From Leptospiraceae bacterium (GTDB lineage Bacteria > Spirochaetota > Leptospiria > Leptospirales > Leptonemataceae), in NCBI GenBank assembly GCA_040217195.1, contig JAVJNR010000002.1:192001-256000 (forward strand): 64,000 bases of DNA, read 5' to 3'. The notes beneath the pieces are model-generated. The model was given only the letters and a program-made list of their open reading frames with translations. It searched no databases and was not told the origin of the DNA. A program made the translations under genes and the position numbers. Below are positions 3,858 through 63,605 of the stretch, one piece after another; position 1 is the first letter of the stretch; every line of letters begins with the position of its first letter.

Positions 3858-3940
3858 TACGTCTTCGGACGTAATAAAAAAGAACGGTGGCTAAGCCCAA
3901 GGGATTAGTCACCAAAAGAATGGGTGAAAACCCAGGAGGA
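3858..3940 (+). promoter_or_regulatory. Structured 5' leader of the lipase gene (three hairpins, then SD)
   Basis: tacgtc-TTCG-gacgta (3858-3873); ggtggctaa..ttagtcacc (3886-3913); tgggt-GAAA-accca (3921-3934); SD ggagga 3935-3940. Confidence 0.55.
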
Positions 3941-3948
3941 GTGTTTAT

Positions 3949-4881
3949 ATGAAGAAGCTGGCGTTCAAGCTAGCCTGTTTTGCTGTGCTCTCTCTGGTTC
4001 CTGCTGGCCTGATGGCTGGTGGAGGATCTTCAGAGAAGCCACTTGCAGGAAGCTATCCTATCGTGCTATCGCACGGACTATTCGGATGGGGGGATTCTGA
4101 TTCTCCCGGTGTAATCAGCATTGTGGAATACTGGGGTGGTATGGATGACTACCTGCGCGGAGAAGGTGTGGCCGTTTATGCGCCCACTAAAACTGCTACT
4201 CAATCCAATGAGTATCGCGCACAAGAGCTAAAGAATAAGATTAACTACTGGATGGCTGCTAATGGCTATTCCAAGGTTCATATCCTGGGCCACTCCCAGG
4301 GCGGTCTGGATAGCCGATACATGGTGTCCAACCTTGGTATGGCCTCCAAGATCTCTTCACTAACTACCTTGAATACTCCGCATCGCGGAAGTCCCATCGC
4401 AGACATTACAAATTCTGTAATTCCTGATTGGCTTAAGCCAAGCGTTGGAGCTGTTCTAGGCGTTATCACTGACATCGTATATGGTGGCGGCGAGCAAGAT
4501 GCTCTGGCTGCTCTGGATTCTCTGACCAAAAGCGGACTGGCAGTGTTCAATCAAAACACACCTAACCGTTCCGGAGTTGATTATTTCTCTTATGGTTCCA
4601 ACATCACAATTACTGATATAGTGCAGCACCCACTGATGGGAATTCTACATCCTATTTGTGGTCTGGGCGGAACTTTCAACGGACAGGGCTTCAAGAATGA
4701 TGGTCTGGTTCCAGATTCTTCTCAAAAATGGGGAACCTGGAAAGGTGGACCAAGCTATTCCTGGTATGTAACTGGTGTAGACCACCTTCAGGCTTCCAAC
4801 ACTCTGTACAGCGGAGAGCTGTGGTATGATGTTGAGGCTTATTATCTGAAGATGGCAAAAAACGCCAAAAACAGCCAGTAA
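3949..4881 (+). CDS. Secreted triacylglycerol lipase (family I-type alpha/beta hydrolase)
   Basis: Signal peptide, YPIVLSHG, GHSQGG nucleophile, TPHRGS, NDGLV, VDHL. Confidence 0.93.
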   Translation: MKKLAFKLACFAVLSLVPAGLMAGGGSSEKPLAGSYPIVLSHGLFGWGDSDSPGVISIVEYWGGMDDYLRGEGVAVYAPTKTATQSNEYRAQELKNKINYWMAANGYSKVHILGHSQGGLDSRYMVSNLGMASKISSLTTLNTPHRGSPIADITNSVIPDWLKPSVGAVLGVITDIVYGGGEQDALAALDSLTKSGLAVFNQNTPNRSGVDYFSYGSNITITDIVQHPLMGILHPICGLGGTFNGQGFKNDGLVPDSSQKWGTWKGGPSYSWYVTGVDHLQASNTLYSGELWYDVEAYYLKMAKNAKNSQ

Positions 4882-23148: not shown

Positions 23149-23243
23149 GCGAATTAACTGAATCCATGGATCCGCTTCCTGGTTAGCTTTACCAGTATCC
23201 TCGTTTAGCTGGGGCCTCCCACCATTTCTCTGGAGGCGGATCT

Positions 23244-24164
23244 CTAATGTCCGAAGAGAACTCGGTTCAATCTGGAAAAAAATCGCGAAAGATAATAATG
23301 GGTCATTCCGGCCATTCTCTTATGTAATCCGGCTTTGAATTCGAATACTGCTTCTGCCACTGCCGGAAAATCCGGTAATCGCTCACTCGATTTTAGAATC
23401 ATCAAACCAATCAAATCCAGAATTTCCTCATAGCTGCGATCCAACTGTGTTTTCCAGTCCTGAAAATTCTTTTCCAGAGATGCATAGATTTCCAGTTCAT
23501 GAAGGCCCATTGGATGTCCCAGACCATCTTCAATTTTCTCTTTCAATCGTATGAAGCTATCGTCCAGAATAACGCTTGAAAGCTCCAGGCTACCTCCCAT
23601 CAGATCCAGAATGAACTGATCTGATTGGCCGGTAATCTCTGACATAGTATTGCCAGGAATTAAATGGAAGGGAATGCAGACCCCTCGGCTGATGATCGTT
23701 TCTTTTAGTAATTCCAGATCTTCAACGAGCAGCACAAAGCGGCTATGCTCCGGTGGTTCCTCCAGGGTCTTTAGAAGGGCCGTTTCTGCCTCATTTTGGA
23801 TCAAGTCGGCCCGTGGAATGAGTATATATCGCTGGGCTGCCTTGAAAGGTGGATACATTAATCGAGTGCGTATTAGCCATCGGACGGTGAAAGGAGCCGG
23901 CTGTTTTTCATCCCCAATCAGGATTTTCTCTTCAGGAAATAGAATGTAATCGGGATGTTCCTGGCGGCTGAACAGTCGACAGGATGGGCATTGACCGCAT
24001 CCGTTACCGGTTTCGCATAAAGCGCATTGAATAAACCATTCGGCAGCGCTGAATTTCCCCACCCCAGCCGGGCCATGAAGTATAAGCAGTGGCGGCGCCG
24101 GATGTCCTATGTAATGATCCAGCATGGACCGGGCAATACTCTGACCTTTTAATTGAAAGCCCAT
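23244..24164 (-). CDS. holB: DNA polymerase III delta-prime-like clamp loader subunit
   Basis: HGPAGVGK, CxxxxGCGQCPSC zinc motif, HPD, ALLKTLEEPP. Confidence 0.82.
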   Translation of the reverse strand: MGFQLKGQSIARSMLDHYIGHPAPPLLILHGPAGVGKFSAAEWFIQCALCETGNGCGQCPSCRLFSRQEHPDYILFPEEKILIGDEKQPAPFTVRWLIRTRLMYPPFKAAQRYILIPRADLIQNEAETALLKTLEEPPEHSRFVLLVEDLELLKETIISRGVCIPFHLIPGNTMSEITGQSDQFILDLMGGSLELSSVILDDSFIRLKEKIEDGLGHPMGLHELEIYASLEKNFQDWKTQLDRSYEEILDLIGLMILKSSERLPDFPAVAEAVFEFKAGLHKRMAGMTHYYLSRFFSRLNRVLFGH

Positions 24165-24223
24165 AGTGCCAACCACTGAGAAGCGGCGGTCTGTGCAATT
24201 CTTACAAAAAGTGCTGGAAAAAG

Positions 24224-24257
24224 AAAAAACCCGGCCTCCTCATTCGAAGGGCCGGGC
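24224..24257 (-). terminator. Rho-independent terminator ending the candidate sRNA
   Basis: Minus strand gcccggccct-tcgaatg-aggaggccgggt followed by tttttctttt. Confidence 0.85.
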
Positions 24258-24373
24258 TGCATCTGAACACACTCTTTCCCGATCTGTCGCCGACTTTTCA
24301 TCGGCGCGGATACTCGCTCGAAGCGAGTAATGAGTGAAAGGATACCTTTTAATCTCCCCCTTAAAAGAATCCG
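24224..24373 (-). ncRNA. Candidate ~150-nt sigma54-dependent small RNA
   Basis: sigma54 box upstream, three strong internal hairpins, intrinsic terminator, no credible ORF. Confidence 0.6.
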
Positions 24374-24382
24374 ACTATACTA

Positions 24383-24400
24383 TTGCAGGCGGCGTACCAG
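24383..24400 (-). promoter_or_regulatory. sigma54 (RpoN) -24/-12 promoter
   Basis: Minus strand CTGGTACGCCGCCTGCAA: GG-N10-GC, close to YTGGCACG-N4-TTGCW; predicted +1 near 24373. Confidence 0.7.
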
Positions 24401-24614
24401 GGAGGGCTCGGACCGGAAAAAAATGCTCATCAAGACCTGTGGCAGAGAAAAAAAAGTGCCTTTTTGCTGATTTTCCGCATCCACGCATGGTACAGCCATT
24501 CGCAGGGGCACTTTACGTCTAGAAGTCTGGTCCTGCGGCTGCCCACTCGGTGTAGCTTTACGCCGGATCCCCGGGGGGTGCACAAAATATAGCTGCCATC
24601 CTTTGCTACATGGC

Positions 24615-24639
24615 TTTATTGTAAGCCAAGCACAATAAA
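24615..24639. promoter_or_regulatory. Perfect inverted repeat, possible enhancer-binding-protein site
   Basis: TTTATTGT-N9-ACAATAAA, about 250 nt upstream of the sigma54 start. Confidence 0.45.
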
Positions 24640-24915
24640 TGGTCAGAATTACTGCCCGGAGAAAAGTCCCTTCCTTCTCGAGGAGAAATTCCCCTGGCAG
24701 ATGTGGGTTTCCCGGTTTCTATTCCCTGCCTCATTCTTTCGTCAATTCGCCATTCTCTCAATAATTTGGCCTGGTCCGGAGTTGATGGGCCCATTGGATG
24801 GAAAATCGATGGATCCTGAACGGACCGGTAGGGCCAGAACCATTAACTGGATGAAAAGAAAGCCAGCTCAAGGAATCTATTTGACCGAAAGGGTGATACA
24901 ATTAGATTCCGCTTC

Positions 24916-25515
24916 ATGCGAAAACATAGATTCCTTGCGGTGGTTGCCATTCTGGCCATTTGTTCGGCGACTTACTGCAAGTCCGGTGACGAAGAGCCAT
25001 CCGATGATCAAGAGCTATTGAATCTTCTGGATGTAAATGTGGCTAATGGGATATTCTGGGTGGGCAAGACCAGTCAGAATAGCTGCAATGCGGGGGATGC
25101 ATCCACCACAGCAACCGTATGCTTTACTCAAACGACTCTGGAAAATACTTATCTTTCCGGAAATGAAAATAACCTGAACCTTTATTTGCCATCCGGAAAT
25201 CCGCCGGCGGGAACTGTCAGTCTTTTGATTCCGCACCCGGACAATTCTTCGCTCAATACATTCGATATTGCAGTGAGTGGAGATCTTTCCGGGGGGTATG
25301 AGACCGGAAACGGAGTGAGTCGGGTGCTAACACTGACTGCGGCTACAGCCACCACTGCCGCAAGTTCTTCAGTGCAGATTCAAATGGTGAGTTTTACAGC
25401 TCAGCAAACGGAGAATTCGGTAGATGGCACCATCGTAGTGCGATTTCTGAGAGCCAGCGGCAGCAATCCAACCTATGACGTTGAATATAACTTCTCTCTG
25501 GACAGGCAGTACTGA
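24916..25515 (+). CDS. Putative lipoprotein, unknown function
   Basis: Basic N-terminus, hydrophobic core, Cys (ATYCKS); beta-rich body. Confidence 0.75.
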   Translation: MRKHRFLAVVAILAICSATYCKSGDEEPSDDQELLNLLDVNVANGIFWVGKTSQNSCNAGDASTTATVCFTQTTLENTYLSGNENNLNLYLPSGNPPAGTVSLLIPHPDNSSLNTFDIAVSGDLSGGYETGNGVSRVLTLTAATATTAASSSVQIQMVSFTAQQTENSVDGTIVVRFLRASGSNPTYDVEYNFSLDRQY

Positions 25516-26945
25516 TGAAGGGGGAACAAGGAATGAAAAACATGCGAAAAACAAAGGTACTGGCAATCCTTCTTACTTTTTGTCTGAGCGCGCCTGTATT
25601 CGGCGAAGCTGATCCTACCGGTTGGGCACTGCAACCCCTTCCTCTGGTAAGCGCAAGTTCCGATGATGGATTTGGCTATGGTCTGCGGGTTTACGGAACG
25701 TATAAGGATGCGAAAGCTGAACCTTATAAGTACCAGATCTACGGACAATACTATGCCACTACCCGAGGGTACGAATTTCATGAATTATCCGTTGATGCAG
25801 TGGATTTTCTTGATTCATCTTTTCGAATCATTACTCGTCTGGGTGTAGAAAGAACTCTCAATGCTCAGTGGTACGGAACGGGAAACTTTCAGGATATTCA
25901 GAGACAAAAGAAGATCAAGAATGGCGAGATCCCGATCAATGAAAACGTGCAGGTAGATCCAACTACCGGTCAGCCAATTCGTGATCTCTACACTTTTGAA
26001 GAGTATAGCGACTCGGTTTATTCATTGAACACAAGAGCGTTGCTGGGTCCCGGAGCAGGCGATTTTCTTAATCCCGGCCGAAAGCTGCTAAAGCAAACTC
26101 AGGGAAAATACTTCTATTATGACCGGATTCGTCCATTTGTCATGATGTCTACTGAGCAATGGATGGGAGATACAAACTTCAAGTGGTTTGTGGGTATTCG
26201 CGGTCAGAGCTATAAGATTCAATCCTACGCCGGCGACTTTGAAGGAGGGGACAAGCTTCCTAACGGTCGAACTCTAATCGATATTGAAAAGCCCCTGGGC
26301 TATGATGCCACCGAAGATAACAAGTTCGTAAATGGACTTCGGGGTGCATTGATCTATGATTCAAGACCCAGAAAGCGGGAGATCAATCCTAATTCAGGTA
26401 TCTTCGCCGATATTCATATCGAAGGAGTGGGCAAAGGCACGGGAAGTAACTATTCCTTCATGAGATATACGGCCGCCTGGAGACAGTACATTGAAGTGCT
26501 ACCCGGTTTCTTCAATCCTCAGGACCGAGAGCTAGTTTTCGCATATCGTGTTCTTGGACAGAAAACCACCGGAGATGTTCCGTTTTATGAGATGGGCCGA
26601 ATCTACACTTCCCGAGAGAACGCAGAGGGTCTGGGTGGAAATGGAGGCCTGAGAGGGTATCCGGCCAACCAGTTTGTGGATCGAGTCATGGGTATGGCAA
26701 ACTTTGAAATGCGTCTGACAACGTTTAGCGTCGATGCGCTGGGCGGCATTGACTTCATTTTCCTGGGCTACTATGACGTGGGACGAGTGGCTCCCACTAA
26801 CCGGGAAATGACTTTGAAGGGCCTGCACCGAGCCTACGGTGGTGGCGTTCGATTACTATGGCAGGAAAACGTTGTGATCAACATTTCCTACGGCCGATCT
26901 CAGTATGAATCCAACTTCAATTTTGGATTTAATCATATGTTCTAG
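25515..26945 (+). CDS. Omp85/BamA-superfamily outer-membrane beta-barrel with no apparent POTRA domain
   Basis: Signal peptide, PLPLVS..DDGFGYG, GGLRGYP lid motif, YDVGRV, C-terminal FGFNHMF; start may be 25533 or 25542. Confidence 0.88.
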   Translation: MKGEQGMKNMRKTKVLAILLTFCLSAPVFGEADPTGWALQPLPLVSASSDDGFGYGLRVYGTYKDAKAEPYKYQIYGQYYATTRGYEFHELSVDAVDFLDSSFRIITRLGVERTLNAQWYGTGNFQDIQRQKKIKNGEIPINENVQVDPTTGQPIRDLYTFEEYSDSVYSLNTRALLGPGAGDFLNPGRKLLKQTQGKYFYYDRIRPFVMMSTEQWMGDTNFKWFVGIRGQSYKIQSYAGDFEGGDKLPNGRTLIDIEKPLGYDATEDNKFVNGLRGALIYDSRPRKREINPNSGIFADIHIEGVGKGTGSNYSFMRYTAAWRQYIEVLPGFFNPQDRELVFAYRVLGQKTTGDVPFYEMGRIYTSRENAEGLGGNGGLRGYPANQFVDRVMGMANFEMRLTTFSVDALGGIDFIFLGYYDVGRVAPTNREMTLKGLHRAYGGGVRLLWQENVVINISYGRSQYESNFNFGFNHMF

Positions 26946-62861: not shown

Positions 62862-63605
62862 CTATTTTCGCAGGTTGGATTTGCTGAAGATATACGGCGG
62901 AATACCGGTATTGAACTTCAGTTGGTGGAAAATCAATGTTGTGCGTGAGACCTCCCGACCCTGTTCCAGGGAAATCATCTGGTACCTGGTGGGGATGGTA
63001 CGACCGCCCATAGTCTGAATTCGATCATAGAGCATCTTCTTCTTTAAACGGCCCTTATGATCGTAGAATTCTTGCTGCACTGGTAAAGAATCCGATTTGC
63101 GAACCTTGAGCACAATCCTGGACCAGACCACAGCGGCGCTGGGTTTCGGTATCATCTCTATAGTGTAGGTCTCTCCGTCTTTGCTCAGGAATTTATGCGT
63201 GTAATCATCCACGACATTTGTTGCCCTGAGCAGATCGTCATTGGTAAAATCTGACCCCATCCAGCTATCCTGGAGCAGGGACCCCTCTATCTTGATCTCT
63301 TTGTTAATGCTGGGCACATACTGCCACATATTGTCCTTTACTTTTAGAAAAGCGGTACCCCGGTCACGCTCGGGTTTCAGAACGCGAATGAAACCGCGGT
63401 CCGTGCTGGACTCATCCCAGATCTGCATTAGTAGGCTTCGATGAACCCGGTCCCGATCAATCTGTAGTTCCATCAGGCCTTCCGAGGTATTTCCCCGGGT
63501 CTTCTGGTCCATTTGATCCACAACCTGGCGGGCTGTGGGCTCGGCCTGTAGACTCAGGCCTGTGAACAGGAAAAAGAAGATGGTAGCTGTAGCTTTTCCG
63601 CTCAT
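62862..63605 (-). CDS. Outer-membrane lipoprotein-sorting (LolA-like) protein
   Basis: Signal peptide, P..RGTAFL, WQYVP, SWMGSDFTNDD, FSKSNL; SD gaggagg. Confidence 0.88.
   Translation of the reverse strand: MSGKATATIFFFLFTGLSLQAEPTARQVVDQMDQKTRGNTSEGLMELQIDRDRVHRSLLMQIWDESSTDRGFIRVLKPERDRGTAFLKVKDNMWQYVPSINKEIKIEGSLLQDSWMGSDFTNDDLLRATNVVDDYTHKFLSKDGETYTIEMIPKPSAAVVWSRIVLKVRKSDSLPVQQEFYDHKGRLKKKMLYDRIQTMGGRTIPTRYQMISLEQGREVSRTTLIFHQLKFNTGIPPYIFSKSNLRK

Follow-up and report, generated by a model that had tools for sequence, protein, structure and literature searches.

A predicted sigma54-dependent small RNA upstream of holB in free-living relatives of Leptospira and its proposed role as a sponge of a second small RNA

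The 64-kb window of Leptospiraceae DNA analyzed here (contig JAVJNR010000002.1, positions 192,001 to 256,000, of genome G000, 4.6 Mb and 94% complete) contains a small RNA gene of ∼150 nt at 24224 to 24372 on the minus strand, recognized by its fold, by RNA-library contigs, and by its conservation in the family. Its downstream neighbor on the same strand is holB, encoding DNA polymerase III delta′ (23244 to 24164; TIGR00678 match of 125 bits, under the cut-off of 180.6). On the plus strand, a divergent lipoprotein-like gene (24916 to 25515) is followed by an Omp85-family gene (25515 to 26945; NF047779, 316.8 bits).

The stretch from 24375 to 24224 folds with a predicted energy of −60.6 kcal/mol (z = −3.73), and none of 200 shuffled sequences was equally stable. 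Folding agreed with the original prediction of three hairpins, a CACUC/GAGUG helix, and a GC-rich terminator with a U tail reaching 24224, all of which are present. The loop of the 5′ hairpin (24372 to 24340), GGGGGAGA at 24353 to 24360, has an unpaired probability of 0.97 to 0.98 in the predicted fold. A conserved element, GGGAAAGAGUG-UGUUCA-GAUGC (24259 to 24280), precedes the intrinsic terminator CCCGG...CCGGG-U6 (24224 to 24256), and its GAGUG is held by CACUC (24336 to 24332) in the predicted fold. The statement that the locus has no credible open reading frame needs amending in that a 50-codon frame starting with ATG runs from 24301 to 24149; however, this frame runs across the terminator, and genome G001 has ATC in place of the ATG. 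A small-ORF reading was rejected because this start codon is not conserved, and no reading frame behind the conserved element is conserved among the homologues. As had been supposed, the RNA belongs to no known family, falling below every gathering threshold of Rfam 15 (best match anti-hemB, 18.9 bits against a threshold of 49.5); a tRNA was the sole Rfam match in the whole window, and a BLASTN search against phages gave no match.

Seven RNA runs from three studies carry a small share of the words from 24000 to 24700, and four of them were aligned on 23200 to 25600. Runs X2 (one study) and X4/X6 (one sample of another study) each gave a single contig, 151 to 154 nt in total length, spanning 24372 to 24223/24224 with six differences from the window, as from a relative. 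The contigs thus begin where a +1 near 24373 had been placed and bear out the idea of a stand-alone RNA of ∼150 nt. Metatranscriptome contigs prove neither strand nor ends, and the runs were chosen for containing the 24000 to 24700 stretch, so the weight of this evidence lies in the contigs themselves ending at both predicted termini in two studies. Run X1, from the third study, gave an adapter-flanked 141-nt piece (24323 to 24183) that is identical to the window and extends 41 nt beyond the terminator; it represents either read-through or DNA. No contig between 23200 and 25600 lay on holB, the gap, or the lipoprotein gene, an absence that is not taken as evidence about their expression. The window RNA is almost certainly a real, expressed RNA of ∼150 nt in free-living Leptospira relatives.

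The sequence TGGTAC-N6-TGCA (24384 to 24399, minus strand) forms a sigma54-type −24/−12 box, and the exact GG-N10-GC spacing originally read in CTGGTACGCCGCCTGCAA (24400 to 24383, minus strand) was confirmed; the contig end at 24372 is 13 nt from the G of GC. When the box alone is scored, 23 intergenic sites in G000 are equally good. The window box is more than a chance match because GG-N10-GC is kept in all six aligned congeners and in five other genera. Altogether, 12 homologues in six genera have it, and the four copies in genus g4 show none. Upstream of the box is a conserved distal enhancer site (24629 to 24645; consensus TGCA(C/T)-W7-GTGC(A)). Sites of this type lie 175 to 260 nt upstream of the box in 11/11 of the first homologues and in the later one from G012, and the same loose pattern occurs at scattered positions in 4/19 holB upstream regions that lack the box. 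The G012 homologue was detected by a covariance model holding no promoter information and yet carries both box and enhancer, so it serves as an out-of-sample check. In a ranking trained without G000 and its close kin, the distal enhancer came first among 45 candidate sigma54 promoters of G000, above the 99th percentile of background. A proximal half-site (24579 to 24595), 50 bp from the distal site, keeps its TTGTGC half in all six congeners and scores low by itself in G000. The genome encodes RpoN and CsrA, as expected from leptospires, together with eight enhancer-binding proteins. With box and enhancer conserved in 12 homologues, the proposal that the window RNA is driven by sigma54 is very probably correct. 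Two other sequences were seen in this region. A sigma70-like CTGACC-17-TACAAT (24646 to 24618, minus strand) overlaps the distal enhancer, and a TA-N3-T-like word is found there in congeners. In G018 (locus L023), a second GATAAAAGAGTGTGTT resembling the g1 element lies ∼55 to 75 nt upstream of the sigma54 box, outside the predicted transcript, and has an 8-nt match to the partner RNA described below.

The most likely activator is an enhancer-binding protein with two GAF domains, EbpA-like by domain order, found in 37/42 family genomes and in all carriers of a window-type RNA except G006 (58% complete). A second, REC-type activator is found in 40/42 family genomes and in all carriers except G001 (77% complete). 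An NtrX-like activator was considered less likely, as it was not found in G021 (94% complete), the bearer of the strongest enhancer sites. The one ground for preferring the GAF-GAF protein is its last helix, NRNTLDKK, which we take to be close to the NtrC recognition helix. The G000 enhancer is not clearly shared with glnA- or amt-like promoters. In Leptospira, EbpA and RpoN serve growth under nitrogen limitation and survival in water (PMC12655853). Leptospira, presumably of the same order, shares the GAF-GAF protein; in contrast to the window RNA, the EbpA-RpoN regulon in the available portions of the two reports names mRNA promoters alone (amtB and two lipoproteins) and no sRNA (PMC12655853, PMC5243855), and the sRNA tables of the latter cover Leptospira.

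Homologues were sought in the DNA upstream of 30 holB orthologues, by pattern search, and by scanning 151 genomes with a covariance model confined to the 3′ core. A window-type RNA was found in 16/42 family genomes and 7/21 genera (g1, six genomes; g4, four; g10, two; and one each in g7, g13, g16, and g17), counts that overstate independence since the genomes are related. Within the genus, the block from 24404 to 24195 is 87 to 93% identical in five of the six other congeners, next to gap DNA upstream that cannot be aligned; the contig of the sixth, G003, ends before the block. Homologues are ∼80 to 185 nt long and share an A-rich strand, (G)GAAGAG(U)G, a variable spacer, and the CCCGG terminator across genera. 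Conservation is highest not in the loop but in the GGAAGAGUG element that precedes the terminator: AGAGUG is invariant in 12/12 aligned homologues (AGAGAG in G012), while GGGG(G)RA occurs toward the 5′ end in g1, g10, and g17 and is absent in g13, g16, and g7. Among 12 homologues, 99% of terminator cells are paired and both sides have changed in 3/8 pairs across genera, the only covariation seen at that distance. Within the genus, compensatory change in the stems was found in 0/53 pairs.

The search was also carried beyond these genomes. A pattern scan of genome contigs gave mostly chance matches; among the matches listed, 2/80 loci score like members, L163 ("Spirochaetia bacterium") and L199 ("Leptospirales bacterium"), at 58 and 56 bits with the window-RNA model. 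With the help of these two names, the family of G000 (f1) was taken as Leptonemataceae-like and the other family of the order (f2) as Leptospiraceae. A holB scan of metagenomes returned distant HolB/DnaX relatives alone (25 to 38% identity) and was set aside. In this second family, many of whose genomes have withheld bases, the model gave matches at an E value of 0.05 in 56/109 genomes (best, 2.6e−5). These were rejected, as the best 12 loci read are mRNA terminators, 10 of them behind one small ORF, with no sigma54 box. Neither the window RNA nor its partner was found in that family. The small ORF is itself highly conserved in genus g23 of the second family, where 10 loci (L142 to L145, L148 to L150, and L152 to L154) carry it between two larger genes; it has ∼70 codons (MLQEINAAG...) and a strong terminator.

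The GGAAGAGUG element, the spacer, and the G-rich loop of the window RNA are complementary to a second predicted small RNA of the same genome, here called the partner. It was found by searching intergenic pre-terminator DNA for the complement of the seed, which gave 8 sites among 222 intergenic CACTCT words. The G000 gene, ∼80 nt, lies behind an AAA ATPase gene on the plus strand (C1:316290-316373; L495:2490-2575), with the seed complement AUGAACACUCUUCCUGCCCC at C1:316326-316345. Its layout comprises TTGACC-16-TACATT and a 5′ hairpin, followed by the single strand UUUUCGCAUGAACACUCUUCCU and then by a terminator whose C-rich loop reads AUUCCCCC and whose tail is U8. A 16-nt core, CATGAACACTCTTCCT, is exact in 31/42 family genomes (one mismatch in G018) and in 0/148 other genomes of the class; one-mismatch core matches outside the family (8/114 in f2) are no commoner than those of a control pattern. 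All 16 genomes with a window-type RNA have the partner, 15 with the exact core and one with a single mismatch, and in roughly half of the genomes that carry the partner no window-type RNA was detected. The near-invariant 20-nt seed stands directly before a U-tailed terminator hairpin in 21/21 loci read, most of which have a TTG-type −35 box (g4 copies do not), and the 5′ parts cannot be aligned across genera. When partner promoters were scored for the window-type enhancer site, 4/21 loci exceeded the 95th percentile. The best Rfam score of the partner was 16.9 against a threshold of 56.4. G019 has two partner copies, one of which (L486) is identical over the printed part to that of G011 (L481), a genome of a different genus, and is probably bin contamination. 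In G015, two copies of CACTCTTCTGTCAGTTGAACTGACCTCT lie ∼1 kb apart on the minus strand (L420:9372 and 10440) with similar sequence after each, an unexplained repeat.

The two RNAs are predicted to pair at two sites. The suggestion that the G-rich loop is a base-pairing site is supported in that GGGGGAGA is complementary to the partner's terminator loop AUUCCCCC (−13.0 kcal/mol, with the cost of loop closure not counted). The conserved element is complementary to the partner seed GCAUGAACACUCUUCC, with a duplex energy of −19.8 kcal/mol in the window copy and −19.3 to −34.4 kcal/mol across the family. Complementarity to the partner of its own genome is seen for every window-type RNA, and the parts used differ among genera. 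Exact complementary runs of 16, 15, 14, 14, 13, 12, and 10 nt occur in g4, g17, g13, and g16. Those of g4 (12 to 16 nt, using GGGGCAGG) reach into the partner's terminator arm, those of g13, g16, and g17 (10 to 14 nt) cover its core, the spacer AUGCGA of g10 pairs with its 5′ arm, and G022 has three separate sites (14, 13, and 7 nt) covering seed, 5′ extension, and terminator loop. Among 149 intergenic pre-terminator 30-mers of G000, none matches the family's elements as well as the partner (mean z of −4.2; next best, −1.8), which ranks first for six of eight genus representatives and second for G000 and G012; these ranks are partly circular because the partner was found by searching for the seed complement. 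For 7/8 representatives, at most 3 of 3,000 random 34-mers pair equally well.

The window copy is among the weakest of these pairs. Its G/U-rich element is matched in pairing by 145/3,000 random 34-mers, no exact run exceeds 8 nt, internal pairing is predicted for half of the element, and the RNAcofold gain is just 12.8 kcal/mol. A GGGGGAG/UUCCCCC contact between the loops may offset this weak, half-buried seed site. Duplexes with the partner of the same genome were not significantly stronger than cross-genome duplexes (P = 0.12; all permutations, eight genera), as the partner barely varies, and single cases of matched change are seen in g10 (AAGG/CCUU) and g12 (ACAGG/CCUGU). Complementarity to the seed of another predicted sRNA in the same genome, one mark of a sponge, is conserved, though weak in the window copy.

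The single strand of the partner is the complement of a ribosome-binding site (RBS) and start codon, AGGAAGAGUGUUC-AUG-CGA-A. The best predicted target in G000 is the RBS of a gene for a secreted alpha/beta-hydrolase of lipase-like type (3949 to 4881 on the plus strand, 3929 to 4881 with its RBS; Abhydrolase_1 and Lip_C matches), which ranks first of 3,928 starts at −26.7 kcal/mol; no orthologue was found in the examined part of G015. The comparison of orthologues was confined to near-start regions and used our own gene calls (3,928 genes of G000; 2,020 genes of G015, from 2.4 Mb of a 4.3-Mb main contig). Two of 911 G000-G015 orthologue pairs with matching starts fall in the top 0.65% of both genomes, a number reached by 0/100 shuffled seeds. 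One is a GDSL lipase, and the other is a secreted hydrolase-like family that has no name and only a weak DUF7379 match. In ten further genomes, GDSL starts were in the top 1% in 5/5 located (seven stretches) and hydrolase-family starts in the top 5% in 9/12 located (13 stretches). Three of the 20 stretches had no start, and among several ATGs the one before a signal-peptide-like sequence was chosen. The GDSL gene was not found in G021, G022, G018, or G014. Strong Shine-Dalgarno (SD) sites and MR/MK starts score well by themselves because the partner is anti-SD-like; against a stricter background of such starts (strong SD, MK/MR), 5/5 GDSL and 5/12 hydrolase starts remained in the top 5%. Broad enrichment (seven pairs in the top 5%) was equalled by 2/30 shuffles, and the excess of signal-peptide genes among the top sites (17/30 versus 7.5 expected) is confounded by MR/MK starts. 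The three hydrolase misses are all from G028 (L503 to L505) and have GGGGG(A) as the SD sequence. This word matches the partner's UUCCCCC terminator loop, which may be a second seed, and GGGGG occurs at 60/3,928 G000 starts. The RBS of a LolA-like outer-membrane sorting protein gene (62862 to 63605, minus strand) ranks 9/3,928 for partner pairing.

The genes facing the window RNA are also candidate targets. The lipoprotein-like gene begins UUC-AUG-CGA-AAA (24913 to 24924, plus strand), a 12-nt exact complement of the partner; its energy rank is just 137/3,928, and 37/3,415 ATG starts read ATGCGAA. This start occurs in g1, g19, g12, g20, and g4 and is absent in g6, g10, and g16. The lipoprotein start AUGCGAAGCAUC of G062 and its partner GAUGCUUCGCAU differ from g1 by a matched change, and in G024 the ATGCGAA start is kept with no partner detected. 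In the Omp85-family gene, the second ATG (25542) reads AUGCGAAAAA, and the start is in the top 1% of G000 starts for partner pairing.

No conserved mRNA target near start codons was found for the window RNA among 1,262 to 1,266 G000-G015 orthologue pairs, which cover about one-third of the G000 genes. A shared CACTCT near the start occurred in 1/1,266 pairs (0.89 expected), and combined duplex ranking gave a best E value of 1.7 (1,262 pairs). Two single candidates were dropped: acyl-CoA dehydrogenase, with a site in 1/25 orthologues, and ntrX, whose site G015 lacks. Because the partner occurs more widely and shows conserved matches to mRNAs, for which the window RNA has no counterpart, the likely sponge of the two is the window RNA. 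From the sequences compared, we favor a reading in which it is a sigma54-dependent sponge (target mimic) that probably binds the partner and lifts its repression.

Since pairing between sRNAs is mutual, direction is not fixed by sequence, and the window RNA could instead be an ordinary trans-acting sRNA of the Qrr or GlnZ kind that addresses mRNAs through its AGAGUG seed, the partner match being secondary or the partner itself being the sponge. The architecture of 5′ hairpins, A-rich strand, seed, and terminator would suit such a role, as would the presence of Hfq. However, the near-chance sharing of CACTCT, the poor best E value, the nonconserved acyl-CoA dehydrogenase and ntrX sites, and the wider distribution of a partner with conserved mRNA matches make it unlikely.

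A cis-acting holB leader, in which the partner or a ribosome at the SD-like element sets the terminator and the 150-nt RNA is the attenuated product, is less likely still. It would account for the position of 15/16 homologues directly upstream of holB and for the X1 piece that crosses the terminator, and in g4 pairing would be possible between a GGG ahead of the seed and the terminator's 5′ arm. The argument that holB has its own promoter fits this genus, in which TTGC of a possible −35 box, TTGCAC (24198 to 24193, minus strand), is kept ∼40 nt before the start in 5/6 congeners, but not g4 and g13, where only ∼12 to 18 nt separate the terminator stem from the holB start. This leaves no room for a separate promoter, and holB may therefore be read through in these two genera. 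Against a leader, TTG-type boxes follow the terminator in g1, g10, g16, and g17 (by eye), a 411-codon gene stands between RNA and holB in G012, and the element is missing ahead of holB in at least 14 other family genomes that have this gene. A riboswitch or attenuator would always lie 5′ of the same gene and have a conserved antiterminator or leader peptide; no conserved ORF or antiterminator was seen among the homologues (the latter judged by eye).

It is very unlikely that the RNA is a protein decoy that titrates CsrA through GGA loops or Hfq through an A-rich ARN tract, in the manner of RsmZ or CrcZ. The suggestion that the G-rich loop could be a CsrA-type site found no support: GGA is present in one to four copies, above shuffles in 0/8 homologues, ANGGA is present in none, and the many (A)NGGA loops of CsrB/RsmZ are thus missing from these eight. 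The CsrB-type repeat CAGGAAG does occur in g4, g7, and g12, but g10 and g16 have no GGA at the conserved site. CrcZ-type Hfq decoys are defined by several AAN/ARN tracts, and one tract at most was found here. The longest ARN run is six in 2/8 homologues (G018 and G012; reached by 0 to 1 of 300 shuffles) and only two in the window copy. CsrA and two Hfq-family proteins are encoded in the genome. The csrA gene sits in a flgK-flgL-fliW-csrA run (names from sequence reading, csrA alone being profile-tested), which argues against an RNA decoy given that csrA is likewise linked in Leptospira to fliW, whose product is a proposed antagonist (PMC8668096). In favor of the sponge reading, the hfq gene adjoins a miaA-like gene, and Hfq was found in 40/42 family genomes. 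Leptospirales carry classic Hfq (PMC11607428). A second, divergent Hfq-family gene (L096; G000 C4:435310-435561) is present in most family genomes.

Equally improbable is that the two RNAs work side by side on some third partner, for example through RBS-like shaping, with complementarity as a by-product: the partner is anti-RBS-like, the window element is RBS-like, and cognate pairs are not significantly above cross pairs, but no reading frame is conserved behind the element, and a shared RBS bias would not yield the different partner parts used per homologue (AUGCGA in g10, GGGGCAGG in g4, three sites in G022).

If the window RNA is a sponge, the circuit might run as follows. An NtrC/Fis-type activator would bind GCA-N9-TGC-type sites ∼200 to 250 bp upstream and fire the promoter, and the 150-nt RNA, probably on Hfq via its terminator and U tail, would pair with the ∼80-nt partner. 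First contact in this genus could be made by the open GGGGGAG loop with the UUCCCCC loop of the partner's terminator; the single-stranded seed of the partner would then displace the CACUC/GAGUG helix and pair with GGAAAGAGUG-UGUUCA-GAUGC. The partner is predicted to cover RBSs of the form GGAG(N)GUG(UUC)-AUG-CGA-A on mRNAs for secreted lipases, esterases, and envelope proteins, and the lipoprotein-Omp85 genes facing the sponge may be among those repressed. Induction of the sponge would bind the partner and release lipase, hydrolase, and envelope mRNAs. These bacteria are fatty-acid-dependent, and such targets, if real, would explain the release of secreted lipases on a sigma54 signal.

GlmY and CrcZ are sigma54-dependent sRNAs that act as decoys of proteins (RapZ and Hfq/Crc, respectively), not of RNA; like Qrr and GlnZ, neither was matched at the Rfam threshold by the window RNA. 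In Qrr and GlnZ, a sigma54 promoter with an NtrC-family enhancer drives the sRNA, as is proposed here, and both pair with mRNAs (PMC13501541, in the portion available). Close in kind is QrrX of Vibrio cholerae, a stand-alone RNA that is made from a regulated promoter of its own and pairs with the conserved seed of an Hfq sRNA; no other targets were found for the window RNA, and the available part of the QrrX report gives none for QrrX (PMC9732341). In Vibrio the sigma54 RNAs Qrr1 to Qrr4 are sponged and QrrX is LysR activated (PMC9732341), whereas here the sigma54 RNA is the proposed sponge. The two have no sequence relation by Rfam, and a second contact, at the terminator loop, is predicted for the window RNA. 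SroC mimics the targets of the metabolic sRNA GcvB and frees a nutrient-uptake regulon, as proposed for the window RNA; unlike the latter, a primary transcript, SroC is an mRNA decay fragment, to which a G030 variant at an mRNA 3′ end compares, and its regulon consists of amino-acid transporters in place of the lipid hydrolases and envelope proteins predicted here (PMC4474525, as far as the accessible text goes).

RNA sponges, among them QrrX and SroC, are a known kind, and our search suggests that both RNAs at issue are undescribed: the full-text literature searched (subscription papers lay outside it) describes neither RNA, nor any base-pairing sponge driven by sigma54, nor an Hfq-type sRNA with a known partner or target in Leptospirales. 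The usual route to sponges is RIL-seq; in this case, it is conservation alone that points to one, in an arrangement that reverses that of Vibrio by placing sigma54 on the sponge. The result is two conserved RNA genes with a predicted pairing and named targets that can be tested by reporters. More tentatively, and with somewhat less than even confidence, we propose a family-wide two-RNA switch in free-living Leptospirales. A near-invariant anti-RBS sRNA, itself repressing envelope proteins and secreted lipases, would be countered by a sigma54/EbpA-driven sponge mimicking three partner surfaces (seed, start-codon arm, and terminator loop), with a kiss between terminator loop and sponge loop as entry. 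The sponge would have been rebuilt from different modules in different genera, with the 3′ end of a fatty acyl-CoA ligase mRNA as the apparent source in one case. If true, this would be the first Hfq sRNA-sponge circuit for spirochaetes, and it would tie nitrogen or starvation sensing to lipid scavenging.

In G030, what the covariance model matched is the 3′ end of a gene for acyl-CoA ligase. Ligase 3′ ends in G000 have no AAAAAAAACAGGAAGAGU-type site, and the 3′ untranslated region of the G030 ligase (C239:35103-35188, minus strand; L140) carries AAAAAAAACAGGAAGAGU before its terminator. This sequence is an 11-nt exact complement of the partner of G030 itself and may mark an mRNA-derived sponge.
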